Below are positions 253 to 15,663 of a stretch of DNA of 38,108 nucleotides, one piece after another. Within the stretch, counting starts at the first letter, position 1. Every line of letters begins with the position of its first letter. The notes under the pieces were generated by a model. It ran no database searches and had not been told where the DNA came from. It saw only the letters and a program-made list of their open reading frames with translations. Made by a program: the position numbers and the translations under genes. This DNA comes from a virus (taxonomy: Duplodnaviria; Heunggongvirae; Uroviricota; Caudoviricetes): positions 1-38,108 of IMG/VR virus record IMGVR_UViG_2563366933_000009; one strand, given 5' to 3'.

Positions 253-3198
253 TTAGTGCTTCCCTTCTATTAAGTCTAACCTAGCTTTTATTCTTTCTAT
301 TTCTCTGCGCTGCCATGCTGCCTCGATATAGAATAAGAGATCAGGTCTGACCCCCCATCTAGATCCTGCTGGCGTTATTTCAACGCGCTCAATGATGTCT
401 TCCATTACCATCACTGGATTATCATCCTCATCAACAATGATGCTCCCGTCATTATCAGTCAGCGGCATTTCCCTTTGGCCAGTAATGACGTCATCATATA
501 CTGCGGGATAATCGTCATAGCAAAGAAAGGCATAGCGGCATGTTGTGCTTTCTTCTTCCATGAGTCCGTGAGAAATAAGAACATCACGAAGTTGCTGCGC
601 GATTACACCATGATGTATCCTCGCCCCTTCTTCCCCCTTTATAGCGACAGCGTTCAGCCATTTATAAGCGATATACCTGACGTCACCCCAGGCATCCAGC
701 AATGCTTCGTCAGGAGAGACCGGCTCTGTCTTTAATGTTCCGTCACTGGTAACCACAGGATTGGAGCCAAGATAAACTGTCGAGAACCTGTTTCCCGGAC
801 CACCAAGAGCATTTACATTATCAAGATAAGGTTTAACATCTCCGTTCTCAAAAAGATGTTCGAGTGCGTTATATACCGCGCGACGTGGAGTACTGCTTCC
901 GGAACCATGCAACGTTATCATTGCACCATCTGCTGAAGACGTTGTTTCACCGCCGCTAACGATTAATCTCTGAGCGGTAACATCATCAGACGGTACTTTC
1001 TTCGCAATAATGGCGTAATTACCCTCAAGTTTGACTTCCGCGCGAACTTGTCCTGATGTACCTGCATGGACAGTCAGTGACTGGACGGCAACATCATCTG
1101 TGAAATCAACGGGTACAGGAACCGTCCTCACGCCTGACGTCGACATAAAAGTAGGAAGCGTTCTGTTAGGAGTGGCTCCGTAGACAAAATCCCTTGAAAC
1201 AAATTCTTCCTGTTTAATTTTCACCCTGAAACAATACAAATCAGCCGGGTGACCATCGTGAAAATAAGGATATTTTCTGTTGTTATCCCCTATGCTCCAT
1301 GGGTTTAGAAAGTCTTCCCCACCGAAAATGTAGTACAGCCAGTTGTCTTTGATACAAACTGAACCAACACCAACCGCAGAGTTAACTATTCCGCCCTGAT
1401 AAATCTGATCAGTAACATTAACCCACTCTACATTATCCAGACTCCACTCATTGACGTTAACTCTGGTCATAAATGTTCTTGGATAGTTTCCTGCATAACG
1501 GTTATCAGGTTCTCCTCCTTCCCACTCACCAAATGCGCGCTCACTGCCAAAAATAATCAGCTCATCGCCAACTTTGGCAAAAGGAAGGTTTGAGTGATGA
1601 ACATTATTTGGGAAGCGAAGAGAATTCCATGATGTACCTAAATCAGAGCTTCTGTGCAATGAACTACCGGGTTGAGTACTTAATGTCCCCCTGGTCGTCA
1701 GATACAGAATGCCATCATAATATTTTACACATGGCTCAGATGCATTCGCCTCATATTCTGCAGGTATGCGTCTGCGAACAAAGCTACCAGGAGAACCGAA
1801 AGCATCAGAGAAATAGAGTATCCCAAGCTCGCGTGGACCAATATCACCATTATGGTAGCCAACAGCAAAACTGTTATCGCTAATCGTCGCAAAACTGTGA
1901 ATCTCAGTAACAGGAGTGCTTCCGTCAACAAAAGAAGGAATAGTTCCAAGACTGGTTTTTCTCCATGGTGACGAGTGAAATGATGTACCAAAACTCCAGT
2001 ATCTACCCTCGTTATTCTGATCCACATCCTGGGTATTTTGCGTCGTAACTGTAAAAGTATTTTTATCAATAACAGTAGTCACCGTCATATTCCCGGTAAC
2101 ACCTGTAACACCAGAGTTTGAGAAGTTGACAAAATCACCAGCAAATAATCCGTGATCAGTAATGCGAATATAAGCGACTTGCTGATTTGCTGCTTTCGTT
2201 ATACCACCATAAACGCGAAGGCTGCGACTCATTGGGCGATCCCACAACTCTGCAACCTGCAGTTTATTTCCGCTCACAGTCCGCGTCTCAATTACAGCAA
2301 AAAGGCGATTTCTGACAACCCCCATACTCATGCAGTGATAGTTAACTGTGGGATAGTTTTCATGTAAATCTGTAAGCCATTCCGGCGTTGTCCAGGTCTT
2401 CCCGTCATCTCCTGAGCGAACCCATGCAACATGGAGGTTATTTACACCATGACGGTCTCCAGCCATAAAAGGCGCATAGATGACATTGTCATATACAAAC
2501 GTTTTATCCTGCGTCCAGGCGTTGTACCACGGTGTATCTGTAATTTTAAATAACTCTCCCTGGATAAAATCTTCAGAAGCATAAAAAAGAGGCTGGCCCG
2601 GTATTCTCTCAAATAAAAAACGAGCATTTTTAAATCGACTGACATCTGGAAGAGTTGATACTTTAAAAGTAAGCCCTCGCCCATCTATCTTTTCACCACC
2701 TGTTGCAACAGAAAGTAATTCTGATAGAGCTGATGTATCATCATGAACACCATCACCAATAGCCCCCCAACCTCTTACATCATAACTGTCTCTCCATCTT
2801 GCTATCTGAAGTTTTGGGTATTTATTCGCTCCATCTGGGTCTTCTAATTGCTGCCGTAACTGATCAGGATCATACTTCAGCACATTAGGAAAATAGAACT
2901 GCTGTGTACCATACGCATCATAAACAGCCATAGAATGGCCTTGCACGGTTACGAATTTGGCAATCTGTCCGTTATATACCGGATATCCAGCAGCGTTAAT
3001 GATTATTGGTTGCGAAACAGGAATGTGAGAACCGTCTTCGTTCTCTACATAAACCTGAATCTGGTTTTCAGGATTTACAGGGTCAGTGTCAATTTTACCG
3101 ATATAAATTTTGCCATTGGCTACGGCTTTAAAAGAACGAGCCATAGTGAAGAGTTGCGAAGGCATACTTACTACAACATTGGCTGTAATGTCTGTCAT
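253..3198 (-). CDS. Tailspike protein: P22 gp9-type N-terminal head-binding domain fused to a different beta-helix receptor-binding/depolymerase domain and a C-terminal intramolecular-chaperone-like domain
   Basis: 981-aa ORF; N-terminus [11 protein letters not shown]...[12 protein letters not shown]...VLKYDPDQ matches the P22 tailspike head-binding domain; [14 protein letters not shown] motif typical of pectate-lyase-like tailspikes; Shine-Dalgarno TGGAG upstream. Confidence 0.9.
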
Positions 3199-3330
3199 TT
3201 AATTTGCTCCAGATACAAGGAATCGCCGCAGCATGGCTACGGTTGGCATTTATTACATACCGAAACGGTACGATTGTTGATTTGTACAGTAGGTTTTACG
3301 ATGCCATTCCACCCATTTGGTGAGGCATTG

Positions 3331-3588
3331 ATGATGTACAGCAAATACGATGAGGCGCAGTTCCACTTGAGGCTTACACACGAGTTGCACGCTAAGATTA
3401 AGCAGCGTGCAAAAATGAATAACAGGTCTATCAATTCCGAAATTGTGGCTACGATGGAAGAATCACTCTCCAAACCATCACCTGTAAGCGGGTATCGTGA
3501 TGAAGAAGAGAGGCTGGCCTCATTAATCTCGGAACGAGTAAAAGAAGTTGCGGCTGAAATTCTAAGGAAAGAAAAAACCCGCGATTAA
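3331..3588 (+). CDS. mnt: Mnt-like ribbon-helix-helix repressor (Arc/MetJ family)
   Basis: Internal ATG of track ORF 2935-3588 preceded by GGTGAGG; product (85 aa) has NNRSINSEIV RHH motif and an SKPSPVSGYRDEEERLA segment resembling P22 Mnt. The upstream part of the track ORF is antisense to the tailspike 5' end and was discarded. Confidence 0.75.
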   Translation: MMYSKYDEAQFHLRLTHELHAKIKQRAKMNNRSINSEIVATMEESLSKPSPVSGYRDEEERLASLISERVKEVAAEILRKEKTRD

Positions 3589-3603
3589 GCGGGTTTAGTT
3601 TTC
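3572..3603. terminator. Bidirectional intrinsic terminator between convergent mnt-like and antirepressor genes
   Basis: Stem AACCCGC/GCGGGTT with 6-nt loop, flanked by an A-run on one side and a T-rich tract on the other. Confidence 0.55.
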
Positions 3604-3614
3604 ATTATAAAATG

Positions 3615-4343
3615 TTACGCCACATTTGAGCCATGTAGCAGGTGTTGTAGTGCTTTAACGCCTTCAGAATTGTAACGGAACGCCTCTACCTGTTTGCTGG
3701 AATGCGCCGATTTATCCAGGAAGAACTTCCCGTACTGCTCAGTTTTGAGGTTGTTTGCGTTAGCAATGCGACCAATCTTGTTGGCCGTTACTCCAAGCTG
3801 CTCTGCAACCTCCCCTGCTGAGTAGTAATGCTCTTCTATTGCCGGAAGAGGTATTGCATTAAAACCAACAAGCGGGTTGATTATACTTGCTGCCGCTGTC
3901 TGCTTTGCCTCAGGCGCAAGATTTGGCATCAGATCGAACAGATTGGTAACAGCTTCAACCGTCATTTTCAATGTTCGCGCTTGACGATACTCAACAAGTC
4001 CACTCGCTGATTTACCGCTTTTAATGTGCGCTTCTTGCATACTTTCAAGTTGGTCTACCAGTGAGCGGCGAACGGCTTTTGACTCGCGAGCGGCAACTCG
4101 CAATGCTTGCTTGATTGACATCTCAATGATAACCATCGAAGTTTTGTTCGCTTTTTGCACTACACTTTTTGTGTAGTGCTCTCCATCCAATTCATCTTCA
4201 ATTTTCTCGATGAATTTGTTATTACGAACCTCCGGCTCACCGCACTGTCTACGAGCCTGATTTACCATCTCAAGCAGGCGCTGGCTGTCAATGGTTTTAT
4301 CCGTGACAACGGATCCGATGTTTGCTACATTCTTAAAAGTCAT
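3615..4343 (-). CDS. Antirepressor-like protein, KilAC-type C-terminal domain
   Basis: Start taken at internal Met (MTFKNVANIG) with AAGGAA Shine-Dalgarno; C-terminal region has the HTH-like motif seen in phage antirepressor KilAC domains; lies in the ant position of an immI-like cluster. Confidence 0.65.
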   Translation of the reverse strand: MTFKNVANIGSVVTDKTIDSQRLLEMVNQARRQCGEPEVRNNKFIEKIEDELDGEHYTKSVVQKANKTSMVIIEMSIKQALRVAARESKAVRRSLVDQLESMQEAHIKSGKSASGLVEYRQARTLKMTVEAVTNLFDLMPNLAPEAKQTAAASIINPLVGFNAIPLPAIEEHYYSAGEVAEQLGVTANKIGRIANANNLKTEQYGKFFLDKSAHSSKQVEAFRYNSEGVKALQHLLHGSNVA

Positions 4344-4412
4344 TAGGCATTCCTTATGTGGTAGTAAGGGTGTGACATAGGCCGCCAGCAGCACACTGGC
4401 GGTTTTCTTTTT
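4338..4412 (+). ncRNA. Putative sar-like antisense RNA covering the translation start of the KilAC antirepressor gene
   Basis: Plus-strand promoter-like GTGACA -17 bp- TACATT at about 4303-4331 inside the antirepressor 5' coding region, and a plus-strand intrinsic terminator about 75 nt downstream; no plus-strand gene is served by this terminator. Confidence 0.3.
4382..4412 (+). terminator. Intrinsic terminator on the plus strand (antisense to the ant genes)
   Basis: Stem CCGCCAG/CTGGCGG with 7-nt loop followed by TTTTCTTTTT. Confidence 0.55.
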
Positions 4413-4431
4413 GCGCCGTCCGGCGCACCAA

Positions 4432-5070
4432 TCAATGAATCCATTCCTCGCCGCGCAGTTTTGCCAGCATTGGCTGAGCGTTCTTTACGACAAAATTGTT
4501 GGTATCAAGATTCTTCATTTCACGAAGAAGTGATTTCTTGGTTTCTTCTGACATATAGCGAGTCTCATATGCGATATCGTAAATCCTTCCTGAAAGCTCA
4601 GAACAAATTTGCTTCATTCCTGGGTAGATGTGTTTGCACATTTGTTGACTCTTCTCCATCCACAATTGTAAGTAGCAGAGATTAACCAGTTCTTCGTCAG
4701 TAAACTGTTTTGCAATCGGTGAGCATTCTGCCTGCCGATCCAAAATATCCAGCACCCAGCGGCGGAACTCTTTGGCCTTGGGCGTAGAAGCAAACATCGC
4801 CACCAAGTGAGCGCCTCGGAGCGAGTAAACTCTGACCGATTTGTTACGTAAGCTATTGTTTATTCCGTTGACCTTCATATTGAGGGTCAATGACATTGAG
4901 TCGGAAAATTCGTCAGCATTACGGGCATAAATTTGGCTGATGGCATCAGTTTTTTTATAGCCGAGAGCCTTAGCTAGTTCGGCGGAGGTGAACCAGATAG
5001 ACCCGCCCTCTGTTACAGGGTTAAAAGTGAATCCTTGGAAGTTATAATCTGATTTTGCTACAATATTCAT
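4432..5070 (-). CDS. Bro-N domain antirepressor-like protein
   Basis: Start taken at MNIVAKSDYNFQGF with AAGGAAA Shine-Dalgarno 5 nt upstream; N-terminal motif FQGFTF...IWFTSAELAKALGY is typical of Bro-N domains; immediately downstream of the arc-like gene. Confidence 0.7.
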   Translation of the reverse strand: MNIVAKSDYNFQGFTFNPVTEGGSIWFTSAELAKALGYKKTDAISQIYARNADEFSDSMSLTLNMKVNGINNSLRNKSVRVYSLRGAHLVAMFASTPKAKEFRRWVLDILDRQAECSPIAKQFTDEELVNLCYLQLWMEKSQQMCKHIYPGMKQICSELSGRIYDIAYETRYMSEETKKSLLREMKNLDTNNFVVKNAQPMLAKLRGEEWIH

Positions 5071-5143
5071 GTTAGTTTCCTTGCATACGGTTACTGACAT
5101 AGAGGCCCGGTTTGTGTTCGCGCACTGCCGGGCTTCACTATTT

Positions 5144-5320
5144 TTACTGGGCATTAGCTCTTTCCTCTCTCAGGCTTTTAGCCAGTCGCTGCACAATCGC
5201 AGAGTTGATAGAAATTCCATCCATTTCAGCTACGCGTCTGATCTCCTCCTTCATTCGCGCTGGCAAACGAAGCTGGAAACTCTGACTTTTACGACCACTG
5301 TAAAGAACATCGCTCATCAT
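5144..5320 (-). CDS. arc: Arc-like ribbon-helix-helix repressor
   Basis: 58-aa product from internal Met with GGAGA Shine-Dalgarno; FQLRLPARMKEEIRRVAEMDGISINSAIVQRL matches the Arc/Mnt RHH fold pattern; divergent from an mnt-like gene as in P22 immI. Confidence 0.7.
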   Translation of the reverse strand: MMSDVLYSGRKSQSFQLRLPARMKEEIRRVAEMDGISINSAIVQRLAKSLREERANAQ

Positions 5321-5336
5321 CAATATCTCCGTCATA

Positions 5337-5357
5337 ATGACATCACCATGATGTCAT
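5337..5357. promoter_or_regulatory. 21-bp operator-like palindrome in the arc / mnt-like divergent intergenic region
   Basis: ATGACATCA-CCA-TGATGTCAT, perfect 9-bp inverted arms; a second inverted pair CATTATG ... CATAATG lies just downstream. Confidence 0.5.
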
Positions 5358-5440
5358 GACACCATTATGATGCCATTGCTCATAATGTCAATATGATGCT
5401 ACTGTGTTTTTTATTGCTCATATGCCTTGCGAATAAGAAA

Positions 5441-5692
5441 ATGTCAGAAAAAGACGAATCAAATTTCATAGAAAGATTTACGGTTAGAATGCCTGACGGC
5501 ATGCGTAGTGCTATTGCGGAAAGGGCTAAACGAAACGGTCGATCTATGAACTCAGAGATAGTTCAAATTCTTGAGGATGCGTTATCATATGACGTCTCAT
5601 CAGTAGACAAATCATTAGATCTTAAACAAATAAAATCTTTACTTGATAAAATTTCCAACGAGTTACTGGATAGAATCCCAAAAGACACATAA
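5441..5692 (+). CDS. Second Mnt/Arc-family RHH repressor paralog
   Basis: Internal Met start (MSEKDESNFIERFTVRMPDGMRSAIAERAKRNGRSMNSEIVQILEDAL) with RHH signature RxxNGRSMNSEIV; divergent from arc. Confidence 0.6.
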   Translation: MSEKDESNFIERFTVRMPDGMRSAIAERAKRNGRSMNSEIVQILEDALSYDVSSVDKSLDLKQIKSLLDKISNELLDRIPKDT

Positions 5693-5738
5693 CAAAACAT
5701 TATCATCCGGTGTTCTGCTCAAAACTAAGGAGGTTGGT

Positions 5739-6059
5739 GTGTATATATCGCTATCTACCATTTTTTTCATCTGCTTAGCTATTTGGCTTTTAAGAATATG
5801 GCAGGATTGCTCTGTCAGCCATGCTGCTGCGGTGAGAAATAAAAACGCCCTCATAAAAGAAGCTGAAAACGTTGTTTTATCAATGGATCACCTTTCATGG
5901 ACCGAGATGACTACAGGGCAACAAGAGGTTTATGAGTGTGCGATTGAGCGGTTAAGGCTGCTTAAATCGTACAAAAAGAACCACGCACCCGACTCATTCC
6001 CATTCCTGAAAGAATGGCCGAGATGGTATGACCCGAGAAAAGCAACCATCAACCGCTAA
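5739..6059 (+). CDS. Small single-pass membrane protein, paralog of the cI-linked ORF at 30739-31053; function unknown
   Basis: GTG start 6 nt after AAGGAGG; hydrophobic N-terminus ISLSTIFFICLAIWLL; shares a YECAIERL-centred region and a W-P motif with the ORF at 30739-31053. Confidence 0.6.
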   Translation: MYISLSTIFFICLAIWLLRIWQDCSVSHAAAVRNKNALIKEAENVVLSMDHLSWTEMTTGQQEVYECAIERLRLLKSYKKNHAPDSFPFLKEWPRWYDPRKATINR

Positions 6060-6067
6060 CCAACTTT

Positions 6068-8074
6068 TTACTGCCGGGCTTTCTCACTTGAAGCCTGAAT
6101 TAGAGGTGTAAGAGTTTCAGATACCCGTCTGATCGCTCTATCATAAGCAGTACTTCCTTTTGGTGTGTTTGCTAACTTTAGTAATGCGTTCCTCATCGCG
6201 CGTGACTCATAGCCCCTGCCAGCCATACCGATACCAGCTCCAACTGCCGCAACTTTTGCAAACATTGGATTTGTAACAGACGCAAGAGCTGTTATCAGCG
6301 CTGCTGGACCAGCTACCATTTGCCCTGTTAGTGGGCTTGCGGCAGCAGTAGCTGCCTGTCTAGTGGAATCAAGATATTTCATTATCCCATCAAGCTGTTT
6401 CCCATGCTCTCCTCTGAAGAACGTCTCAGCCTGCTTCCGATTCCTTTTCATTTCATTAATAAACTTCTCAACGCTAAGCTTTCCTGAATCGCTTGTCGCC
6501 TTATCCATTGCACGCTGAACAAGTGCTGCTCTAGCATTTTGACGCCCACTATCATCAAGCAATCGATAAAGTTGCGCCCTTTCCGCTGGGCTTTGGCTGA
6601 ATACTAGTTTAGTGACATCTTCTGGCGTTGTTTTACCACTCTGAATAGCTTTTTGGACACGTGTATTGCTCATCATGTCGTTGAACTTTGCCCAAGAACG
6701 ATCAACACGCGACATGTTTTGCGCTTCCTTCGCACCTAGTTTTGCGCCAACCGCTTTTTTCATGTCTGTTGTGTATGCGTTATAAACAGACTGCGCAGCT
6801 TTCTCCAGCGTATCTCTATCGACCTCGTCAGGTGCTGCCATAAAGCGCTTACGTAAGTTTGTACGGTTTTCTCTAGCTAATTGCAGGTTATTTGGACCGC
6901 TGGTGATGTCATTTCTAAACTGTTGAAGGACAGAAACAGCTGAGCGGTCTTGCGATACTCCTGGGCGAGTTAACTTGGAAATCTGCTCATCAATTGCTTT
7001 CACTGTTCCAGTGATGTCAACAGGAGTATCCCCCATCAAACTGATGATCCTGTCGTACCGCTTGCCAGCAGCCTGAATAAATTGCTGCTGACCACGAGTA
7101 GCTGATTGGTAAAGTTGTGCGTCAGATATTCCACCAACATTATCGCTAAATGTTCTAACTAAATCTTCCCTGGCCTTTTGCTGTGCATTTCTTATCCCAC
7201 CTGTTCCGGCTATTGGGATTCGCTCAGCCATAGCTCGTGCTTGCTTACCAATATTTGTTCCCGGTTCCACAAGATCTGTTGTCATCAGTGGCAAGTTGTT
7301 CTGCTTGGCAAAGTCAATCTGAGCTTGTTTTTCAGGAGCTATCTTACCCATAGCAGAACGAGACACTGCGCTTGCGGTGTTTTCTACACCCTTCAGTACC
7401 CCACCAAGACCAGCAGAAATTGCAGTTTGAACTGGATTAACATTCTCACCGCCAGCGATCTTAGTGGCCCCCTGTAAAGCTAAATCAGTAGCGCCTGATT
7501 TTAGTGTTGCACCTACAACAGACGCAGCTCTACCTGCTGGAGTGAATGCAAGAGCATTTGCCAAGAATGACGTTATATCCTGCGGTGACAAACCAGGCTT
7601 GTTAAGTGCATATTCCCCTGAAGGAAGGGTGACTATGGAATTTCCCTTCTCATCCTTCCGGATTTTCCCGCCAATACTTTGCAGTATTTTCTCCTGTGAA
7701 GCGTCGGAACCAAATAGCTGCCCCAATCCAGCACGCAGCGCATCAGTGCTTAAGCTATTAAGCTCTGGAGCAGACCCAACATTTTGCAGTCTCTCCATTT
7801 CTGGTGTCATTCGGCTTTCACCGGTAACGGCATCGCGCATTGCAGCACCTAAAACAGCCCCTTGCTCAGCAGAGCGATCTAGTCCTTCCTTCTGCTGAGT
7901 GGCAAGCTGTGCATATCCTGATGCAAGTGAGTTGTCTGCTGGCGATTGCTGAACACCTTGTTGTGTTGGTGCTGACTGACCAGCAAAATACTCATCAATG
8001 GCGGTGCCAATATCTTCGGTGCTCGTACCATCAGGGAAGGTAAATGTCTTACCGTTTGCAGTAACTTTCATCAT
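6068..8074 (-). CDS. Ejection (injection) protein, P22 gp16-like
   Basis: 668-aa ORF at the gp16 position in a P22-type gene order; Gly/Ala-rich composition; overlaps the upstream gene stop. Confidence 0.8.
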
Positions 8075-14769: not shown

Positions 14770-15663
14770 TTATTTTTTTGCCTTTTTAGCGGCGAAATAC
14801 GGCGTCCAGTCACCAGTTTCCAGCGCCTTGGCTTTCAGTTTGTCGAGGTTATTGATTACTGCGCCGTTGCTCCCCTTAACTGTCGGGGTTGTGGCTGCCG
14901 TGGTTTTTGCTTTTGGCATGATTCTGGCCTTCGATTCGATACGTTCCAGCAGACGACCAATTACTACGGGGTTGGTAGCTTCTGCCAGTTGCTTGCGCAG
15001 TTCAGCGTTGCGACCGAGCGCCAGAACAACGATTTCCGGCTTCTCTGACTCAAACAGGATCGCGTTTTGTGTCTCGATGGGGATTTCCTCGAGTACGGCC
15101 TGTTCAGCTTCCTGATAGCCAGGAACCTTGAGAGCCTTAACACGTTGCTGATATTTGGATAATCGCTCTTGATAGGCAGCCTGAAGCTCCTGCTCCTTCT
15201 GCTTGCGAGCCATCTCCTGTTGCTGGTATTTGCCGTTGTCCTCCGCCCACTTAGCCATGCGTTGCTGGTAGATTTCTTCATCGAAACCGATGTCCTCATC
15301 ATCCAGTTTTGGCATTCGCGGTGGTTGAGTGATTACCGGCTGCTGCTCGACGGGTTTCTGAGACTGACGCATCAGCTCTTTCAGCTCGCGGTCTTTCTCT
15401 TTAATCGTCTTGCGCAGGTGTTTTACCAGTCCATGCTCTGCGCCATCTTCGCTGGTTGGCGAATCCAGCTTTTCGTCACCAAAGTAGAATTCCTGTTCTG
15501 ATTCGTCGTCATCAGTTTCAGTAGCTTCCTCTGCATCATTGCCGGAGGACTCACTGCCATCTTCTGTTTCGACTTCTTCAGCCAGTTCGACATCATCAGG
15601 AATCTGCTCTGACGCGTCGGTTTCGATTTCAACTTCTGGTGTGTTTTCTGCCATCTGGTCCAT
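14770..15663 (-). CDS. Scaffolding protein
   Basis: 297 aa, highly acidic N-terminus, charged coiled-coil-like middle, basic C-terminal tail; between portal and coat genes. Confidence 0.8.
   Translation of the reverse strand: MDQMAENTPEVEIETDASEQIPDDVELAEEVETEDGSESSGNDAEEATETDDDESEQEFYFGDEKLDSPTSEDGAEHGLVKHLRKTIKEKDRELKELMRQSQKPVEQQPVITQPPRMPKLDDEDIGFDEEIYQQRMAKWAEDNGKYQQQEMARKQKEQELQAAYQERLSKYQQRVKALKVPGYQEAEQAVLEEIPIETQNAILFESEKPEIVVLALGRNAELRKQLAEATNPVVIGRLLERIESKARIMPKAKTTAATTPTVKGSNGAVINNLDKLKAKALETGDWTPYFAAKKAKK

Follow-up and report, generated by a model that had tools for sequence, protein, structure and literature searches.

A putative sar-type antisense RNA gene at the start of the second antirepressor gene of a P22-like prophage

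Introduction

The 38,108 nucleotides (nt) analysed here over their whole length, and called the window throughout (IMG/VR record IMGVR_UViG_2563366933_000009, a virus of the Caudoviricetes), are a P22-like (Lederbergvirus-type) prophage of the K1 type. The locus of interest is an immI-type 'ant moron' carrying two antirepressor genes, ant1 (4432-5070) and ant2 (3615-4343), which follow an arc-like gene (5144-5335) in a minus-strand Pant operon, arc-ant1-ant2. Antirepressors decide whether a prophage stays silent and, to our knowledge, the sar RNA of phage P22 is the textbook, and essentially the only, case of an antisense RNA guarding an antirepressor gene. Here we describe a plus-strand element at 4303-4412, in which a predicted promoter within ant2 is followed by an intrinsic terminator just short of ant1. 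The element is probably the gene of a cis-encoded antisense small RNA (sRNA), a second sar-type RNA of the immI region, that blocks the translation of ant2 by pairing with its ribosome-binding site (RBS).

Results

Anatomy of the antisense element

A promoter scan finds the -35 hexamer GTGACA on the plus strand at 4303-4308, within ant2 codons 12-14, separated by a 17-base-pair (bp) spacer from the extended -10 element TGcTACATT at 4323-4331, in ant2 codons 5-7. The TG occupies 4323-4324 and the hexamer TACATT 4326-4331, and the promoter, which we call Psar2, scores 9/12. Both hexamers fall where a preliminary description of this DNA, made from the sequence alone, had placed a plus-strand GTGACA-17-TACATT pair within the 5' end of the antirepressor gene. 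The sequence thus presents the features of a sigma-70 extended -10 promoter, namely TGn, A2 and T6 of the hexamer, a -35-like hexamer and a 17-bp spacer, and the start of transcription predicted from the spacing is the A at 4338 (plus strand), 7 nt past the -10 and at the third position of ant2 codon 2.

The sRNA predicted by folding and by the family covariance model described below is about 73-75 nt long (about 4338-4412, plus strand) and is complementary to approximately -67 to +6 of the ant2 messenger RNA (mRNA). Its target, as read from the minus strand at 4341-4355, consists of the Shine-Dalgarno sequence AAGGA (4355-4351), a 7-nt spacer and the ATG (4343-4341) of ant2. The complements of start codon and Shine-Dalgarno sequence, CAT (4341-4343) and TCCTT (4351-4355), fall between the -10 and the hairpin and inside 4338-4412, which bears out the earlier proposal that the RNA would be complementary to the antirepressor RBS and start codon. 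The layout is that of a sar-type locus, with an opposite-strand promoter in the 5' end of the antirepressor gene and a predicted RNA that covers the RBS.

The predicted RNA folds into a 5' stem-loop and a terminator hairpin at -25.1 kcal/mol (z = -2.8). The 5' stem-loop, at 4339-4376 of the plus strand in the minimum free energy fold, contains an anti-Shine-Dalgarno UCCUU. The intrinsic terminator (4379-4412, plus strand), located by scan and by fold, has a stem of 10 pairs, six of them G-C (4379-4388/4396-4405), a loop of 7 nt (4389-4395) and a U-tract that extends to 4412, so that the hairpin is followed on the plus strand by TCTTTTTG. This combination of a G+C-rich hairpin with UUUUCUUUUU is what defines an intrinsic terminator; its structure is conserved, and it is the strongest of the six terminator-like sites that the scan returned for 2500-6500. 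Read on the minus strand, the hairpin runs into CCTATGTCAC, which is no U-tract, and the terminator is therefore one-directional, acting on the plus strand only. The list of open reading frames (ORFs) of the window holds no plus-strand ORF that it could serve. In this respect the preliminary description was right about a T-run hairpin without a plus-strand ORF; its distance of about 75 nt from the promoter needs correction, as the hairpin starts 48 nt past the -10 and the figure of about 75 nt applies to the whole predicted RNA. A small palindrome, GCGCCGTCCGGCGC, lies just past the T-run (4412-4425, plus strand) as part of the ant1 3' flank; variants in other loci break its pairing and it is probably not a conserved structure.

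Third codon positions of the leader are fixed where the promoter requires

Homologues of ant2 were retrieved by two peptides of the protein body only, DEL[DE]GE[FHT]Y and QALRVAARE, the leader being unused in the search, and the ant2 start codon is conserved in the homologues used for comparison. Nineteen non-redundant representatives (<95% identity) of this body-ascertained set entered the codon test. Across codons 2-45, the third position is invariant only in codons 2, 5, 6, 7, 12 and 13, which map to the +1, to positions 4 and 1 of the -10, to the T of TG and to positions 6 and 3 of the -35. Promoter-linked codons are thus invariant in 6/6 cases as against 0/37 for the others (Fisher p = 1.6e-7), and a separate set of 18 homologues gave 6/6 against 1/37, with the same six codons and one other. 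The promoter bases are kept even where the encoded residue changes (N/T, V/L and V/N/S/I, as in AAT/ACT, GTA/TTA and GTT/AAT/TCT/ATT). Such persistence through amino-acid change marks a promoter rather than a peptide. In the spacer the third positions are variable, and so is that of codon 14, just outside the -35. Among 48 diverse cassettes the predicted +1 is an A in 46, and the -10 occurs in the family as TACATT, TAAATT, TACAGT and TAAAGT, with A2 and T6 always kept.

Promoter and terminator occur together and the terminator stem covaries

Promoter and antisense terminator were both present in 48/48 short-leader loci of the body-ascertained set; in P1-type loci, whose homologous region forms an internal part of Ant1, either of them was found in 0/27. 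When IMG/VR was searched with the promoter pattern, a terminator accompanied 82/82 true family members as against 2/142 chance matches, and control patterns with altered spacing (N15 versus N14) returned only chance matches from the same database, with a terminator in 0/52.

Within the 48 diverse cassettes the terminator stem shows double compensatory changes at 6/8 pairs, amounting to 25 cells, a level reached by 0/500 shuffles, and sliding the partner columns abolishes the pairing. Homologues recognised by similarity only also covary, CAG/CTG becoming CAA/TTG in phage Midgardsormr38 and a C-G pair becoming G.U in KpnBHU6; the Proteus terminator stem combines a G-C to A-U change with a C-G to G.U change. 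Internal G.U pairs such as GCCGGCAG/CTGTCGGC can pair on the plus strand only, and on that strand the stem invariably precedes the T-run, from which it follows that the functional strand of the terminator is the plus strand. The hairpin energy of the terminator does not differ between strands. For the 5' parts, folding favours the sRNA strand over the mRNA strand in 45/62 cases, which is partly an effect of base composition.

The element moves as a cassette between unrelated antirepressor genes

Homologous regions were found in phages JEP4, phiKp_30, KP12, KpnBHU6, Erwinia phage Midgardsormr38 and SPN3UB, in 77/5,426 complete E. coli genomes, in genomes of Proteus, Dryocola and Intestinirhabdus and in many IMG/VR and metagenome contigs; E. 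coli MS1657 has a locus of 100% identity. The genera in which the family was seen include Escherichia, Klebsiella, Salmonella, Erwinia, Proteus, Dryocola and Intestinirhabdus. The stretch retained across loci runs from the -35 through the end of the T-run. Homology ends directly past the T-run, where the loci continue into unrelated flanks of at least seven kinds. The opposite end is formed by a leader of 13-14 codons, M-x3-[NT]-[VL]-A-x4-x-V-T, that genes with differing bodies have in common; this leader has been joined to antirepressor N-terminal domains of at least four unrelated kinds: P1-Ant-like; Rha (PF09669, the domain starting at residue 15/16); Rha with KilAC (PF03374); and ORF6N, as in SPN3UB gp22. 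In most family loci the cassette lies 0-20 nt past a first antirepressor gene, of the BRO/P22AR or the genuine P22-Ant type, and ant1-cassette-ant2 operons are therefore common. When a Rha-type cassette was compared with isolated phages by BLAST, SPN3UB-like phages matched it in the terminator only, and no well-studied phage with expression data came up. Clustering of the 5' parts of the RNAs by single linkage chained excessively and defined no specificity classes.

Several individual loci depart from the common arrangement. In Midgardsormr38 (locus L005, 2663-2710) the upstream antirepressor gene, ORF18, reads through the sRNA terminator hairpin, which is thus also coding on the other strand. 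In E. coli HS (locus L399, 843-2644) an IS3 element interrupts ant2, and one metagenome contig (L418) has ACG in place of the ATG start codon; antisense promoter, leader and terminator are intact in both. Four IMG/VR loci (L091-L094) carry an ant2-family variant of 83% identity with a longer leader, MVNNIANHSSFPAVT, upstream of the match start at 2501. They keep an extended -10 (TGcAATATT), have a -35-like GTTACA displaced to 22 bp and possess a different hairpin with a weak T-run; to judge from these features the cassette may be present there in a decayed or alternative form.

An orthodox sar homologue lies at the arc-ant1 junction of the same operon

Scanning and alignment to P22 Psar/sar reveal an orthodox sar/Psar homologue on the plus strand at the arc-ant1 junction (5035-5145). 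It comprises TTGGAA (5035-5040), 18 nt, TGcTACAAT (5056-5064), the CAT of ant1 at 5068-5070, a hairpin at 5104-5134 (fold z = -4.1) and a T-rich tail, TTCACTATTTTT, that overlaps the arc stop. The site scores below the Rfam sar threshold and carries no RefSeq annotation. Because this homologue is also present, the element at 4303-4412 is an addition to it and not a replacement: it lies between the ant1 stop (4432) and the ant2 start (4343), not in the arc-ant region. In ant1-type genes the orthodox sar position bears a weaker signature of invariance, in which third codon positions at -10 position 1 and at one -35 base are invariant and the TG is not conserved.

For comparison, the P22 record annotates sar at 15021-15090, a 70-nt RNA, with Psar reading GTGTTA-17-TGcTATACT in the first ant codons. 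Between our site (4338-4412) and sar only short motifs are shared, TTTGCTACA and TGACATAG. A family covariance model built from 48 members gives 4338-4414 a score of 57.7 bits, while the rest of the window stays at noise level. Weak Rfam hits to SgrS, SymR and RyhB (E 0.2-5) were set aside as terminator-driven noise. The element represents a putative, unannotated RNA family separate from the Rfam sar family RF00262, with the same architecture as sar. The earlier view of it as sar-like and directed at the second ant gene therefore stands as regards layout and target; it is not a member of the Rfam sar family, and the arc-ant1 junction has a sar homologue of its own.

The target gene encodes a P1 Ant1-like antirepressor

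The 242-amino-acid product of ant2 matches PHROG 1726, 'anti-repressor' (E = 7e-101), and over 93 residues (14-106, aligned with 112-204 of the P1-type Ant1) it shows 77% identity. Its architecture is that of a 13-14-codon leader, a P1-Ant-like N-domain and a C-domain common to Rha-type relatives. No Pfam family, ANT (PF03374) included, matches the product at E <= 0.01, and the designation of the target as a KilAC antirepressor in the preliminary description has accordingly been replaced by PHROG 1726 and P1 Ant1-like; PF03374 does occur in other genes carrying the same cassette. Comparison shows no relation of the ant2 protein to P1 KilA or to P22 Ant. A match to P53as, the antisense promoter of P1 kilA, was dropped, since ant2 is unrelated to P1 KilA and matches P1 Ant1. 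In its C-terminal half, which starts at about residue 107 (...GLVEYRQARTLKMTVEAV...), ant2 has a domain without a Pfam family that also occurs in Rha-type antirepressors with a different N-domain (L011, L280 and related cassette-bearing loci), and this sharing, seen at the level of sequence, points to domain shuffling among these antirepressors.

Gene neighbourhood

The late operon of the prophage is on the minus strand, and a gp16-like DNA-transfer gene (6068-8074, minus strand) is followed by an mnt-like gene of the Arc family (5393-5692, plus strand). The first gene of the Pant operon matches Pfam Arc (PF03869, E = 1e-11), and ant1, which matches Pfam BRO-N and P22_AR_C, has its stop 20 nt from the predicted sRNA 3' end. 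The promoter scan places a strong Pant-like promoter, TTGACA-16-CATAAT (11/12), 5' of arc at 5364-5391 on the minus strand, and this presumably makes the target mRNA. Nested inverted repeats (5332-5387) separate the arc-like and mnt-like genes and overlap both of the divergent promoters, the Pant-like and the Pmnt-like one. Among these repeats are a perfect 9-nt pair, ATGACATCA/TGATGTCAT (5337-5357), adjoining the Pant-like promoter, and copies of TCATAATG/CATTATGA. The repeats are likely Arc/Mnt operators, with the 9-nt repeat as an operator.

An extra Arc-family gene (3331-3588, plus strand), convergent with ant2, sits between ant2 and the tailspike gene, a position that is empty in P22. It shares with ant2 a bidirectional terminator at 3575-3596, AAACCCGC...GCGGGTTT between A- and T-runs. 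The endosialidase tailspike gene itself (253-3198, minus strand) encodes the P22 head-binding domain, the full endosialidase domain set and an S74 chaperone, and the prophage is therefore that of a CUS-3-like phage specific for the K1 capsule.

Discussion

Comparison among genomes demonstrates, at the sequence level, the elements themselves, nucleotide-level selection on them, the fact that they occur strictly together and their transfer as a single cassette; from these we infer the promoter activity, the RNA ends and the translational repression by the RNA. The core of the antisense idea, which is an internal plus-strand promoter, a hairpin and T-run at the end and complementarity to RBS and start codon, is supported by the same comparisons. 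According to the model that we favour, the sigma-70 promoter GTGACA-17-TGcTACATT in the first 14 codons of ant2 would fire on the plus strand at about A4338, and the transcript would run back over the ant2 start codon, the Shine-Dalgarno sequence and the leader before stopping at the terminator (4379-4412), which leaves 20 nt to the stop codon of ant1. Within the arc-ant1-ant2 mRNA, the region where translation of ant2 begins would have a perfect complement in this RNA of about 75 nt. On the model of P22 sar, the RNA would most likely pair there and block ribosome binding, with cleavage of the duplex as a possible consequence. The second antirepressor gene would in this way gain a post-transcriptional brake of its own, in addition to the sar homologue over ant1. 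Transcriptional interference may also contribute.

Several observations weigh against this interpretation. Taken by itself the window provides weak evidence for the promoter-terminator pair, which does not reach significance there: a 4-kb scan found 10 promoter-like sites where 7.4 were expected from shuffled sequence, the 9/12 match of this promoter is ordinary on its own, and the one promoter-then-terminator pair that a scan of the whole 38 kb returned, at 4303-4412, has to be set against a chance expectation of 0.17 per window in first-order Markov simulations. It is by comparison with other genomes that the element is seen to be non-random. There too, the homologues share descent, so that the p-values overstate independence, the 48 cassettes of the covariation set had been pre-selected for perfect stems, the 5' stem-loop has no single consensus structure across the family classes, and the leader peptide could have a protein role as well. 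Neither RefSeq nor GenBank records annotate the site. Rfam gave no hits in the window at gathering score (43 bits for RF00262), and RF00262 matched neither of the two sites as sar in 3300-5800 at E <= 10; the same model scored the P22 control at 97.8 bits. In the reverse direction our family model gave the orthodox site 11.7 bits (E about 5) and did not find P22 sar. Since it finds neither, homology to sar is unproven. The transcript and its repression of ant2 are, moreover, predictions from sequence.

Other explanations can be offered for the same features. A real antisense promoter might act mainly by transcriptional interference, through collision with or occlusion of Pant transcription entering ant2, with the terminator shielding ant1 and the RNA without a role. 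The promoter does face the transcription of the operon, and the comparative signatures show that promoter and terminator are kept, not that RNA and target pair. However, the overlap is only about 75 bp, the terminator stands at a fixed short distance, and the RNA always covers the Shine-Dalgarno sequence and the ATG, while the P22 paradigm acts via RNA pairing at the RBS (PMC7968456); we therefore consider interference as the principal mechanism unlikely. That the hairpin instead serves the minus-strand mRNA, in ant1/ant2 processing, in stability or in sequestration of the Shine-Dalgarno sequence, with the promoter motif a by-product of a conserved N-terminal peptide, appears very improbable. 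Third codon positions are fixed across residue changes exactly at the -35, TG, -10 and +1, the T-run is 3' of the stem on the plus strand only, G.U pairs of the RNA would be C.A mismatches in the mRNA, and the leader is joined to four unrelated domains; these outweigh the facts that hairpins form on either strand, here with equal terminator energies, and that the leader peptide is conserved.

A slightly smaller chance attaches to the terminator being an insulator against plus-strand read-through, for example from the 3331-3588 gene, into ant1, arc and Pant, with the promoter match due to chance. The presence of a plus-strand gene downstream of ant2 and the ordinary promoter match in the single sequence would fit such a role, but that gene has its own bidirectional terminator (3575-3596), the promoter-terminator spacing is kept without it in KP12, Midgardsormr38 and Proteus, the promoter positions are under selection, and a terminator without the promoter motif was found in none of the 48 loci with leader-bearing homologues. 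Least probable of all is a cassette that is a mere recombination linker between antirepressor modules, with no regulatory role. Mosaic boundaries do occur at both of its ends, past the T-run and past codon 14; a linker, however, needs sequence identity and not compensatory stem changes, and it leaves unexplained why conservation is confined to the promoter hexamers while the spacer drifts.

The predicted antisense sRNA directed at ant2 has parallels among known systems. In its layout it resembles P22 sar, whose mechanism of pairing at the antirepressor RBS has been described (PMC7968456; PMC2629481), in being a cis-antisense RNA of about 70 nt with an extended -10 promoter in the first 12-14 antirepressor codons, in running back over the RBS, in having two hairpins of which the 3' one is the terminator, and in belonging to a Pant-type operon with arc and mnt relatives. 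It differs from P22 sar in its position between two antirepressor genes rather than between arc and ant, in its +1 in codon 2, so that the start codon is included where P22 sar begins just upstream of the ATG, and in its P1-Ant-like target, unrelated to P22 Ant; it has no significant Rfam sar score, the reverse search also fails, and it coexists with a homologue in the sar position of the same operon. Short terminator-ended antisense transcripts are also represented by oop of lambda and P22 and by sas and anti-23, as annotated in P22, which differ in target and position and do not lie within a coding leader that moves between genes.

Further likenesses lie outside the P22 group. In IS10, RNA-OUT is expressed from an antisense promoter in the 5' end of its target, RNA-IN, and is an RNA of about 70 nt over the start codon and RBS that blocks the ribosome. 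The element described here would share the internal antisense promoter and an RNA of that length over start codon and RBS; the IS10 target is a transposase, the sequences are unrelated and the hairpin architecture is other. The c4 RNA of P1 and P7 (icd-ant1/2; compare the CA RNA of N15) is likewise an RNA regulator of an antirepressor, and ant2 is homologous to P1 Ant1. However, c4 is encoded on the same strand, ahead of the genes that it controls; it is released by processing of the operon transcript and recognises short complementary boxes in trans, and the 27 P1-type loci sampled have neither leader promoter nor terminator. The searchable literature yielded only the classical arc-ant sar, with no second sar described and no paper printing the sequence. 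What is new is a putative sar-like regulator built as a portable cassette with a coding leader, one of a widespread family absent from Rfam. The comparison indicates that operons with two antirepressor genes carry one predicted antisense RNA gene for each, and the 13-residue N-terminus common to unrelated antirepressors would be explained by codons that double as a promoter on the opposite strand.

More tentatively, and with considerable doubt, the element may be one of many portable 'antisense-braked leader cassettes' of about 110 bp, a large and as yet undescribed family that phages shuffle onto antirepressor genes of unrelated fold. In that reading the module would consist of the sRNA terminator, the 5' untranslated region and the 13-14-codon leader that holds the sRNA promoter, and the 5' parts would form specificity classes able to silence in trans between phages. 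If this is true, a prophage sRNA could silence the same-class antirepressor of a co-resident or superinfecting phage, adding an RNA layer of immunity and cross-talk beyond that of P22 sar. Recognition of such elements would improve the annotation of prophages and models of their induction and cross-immunity.
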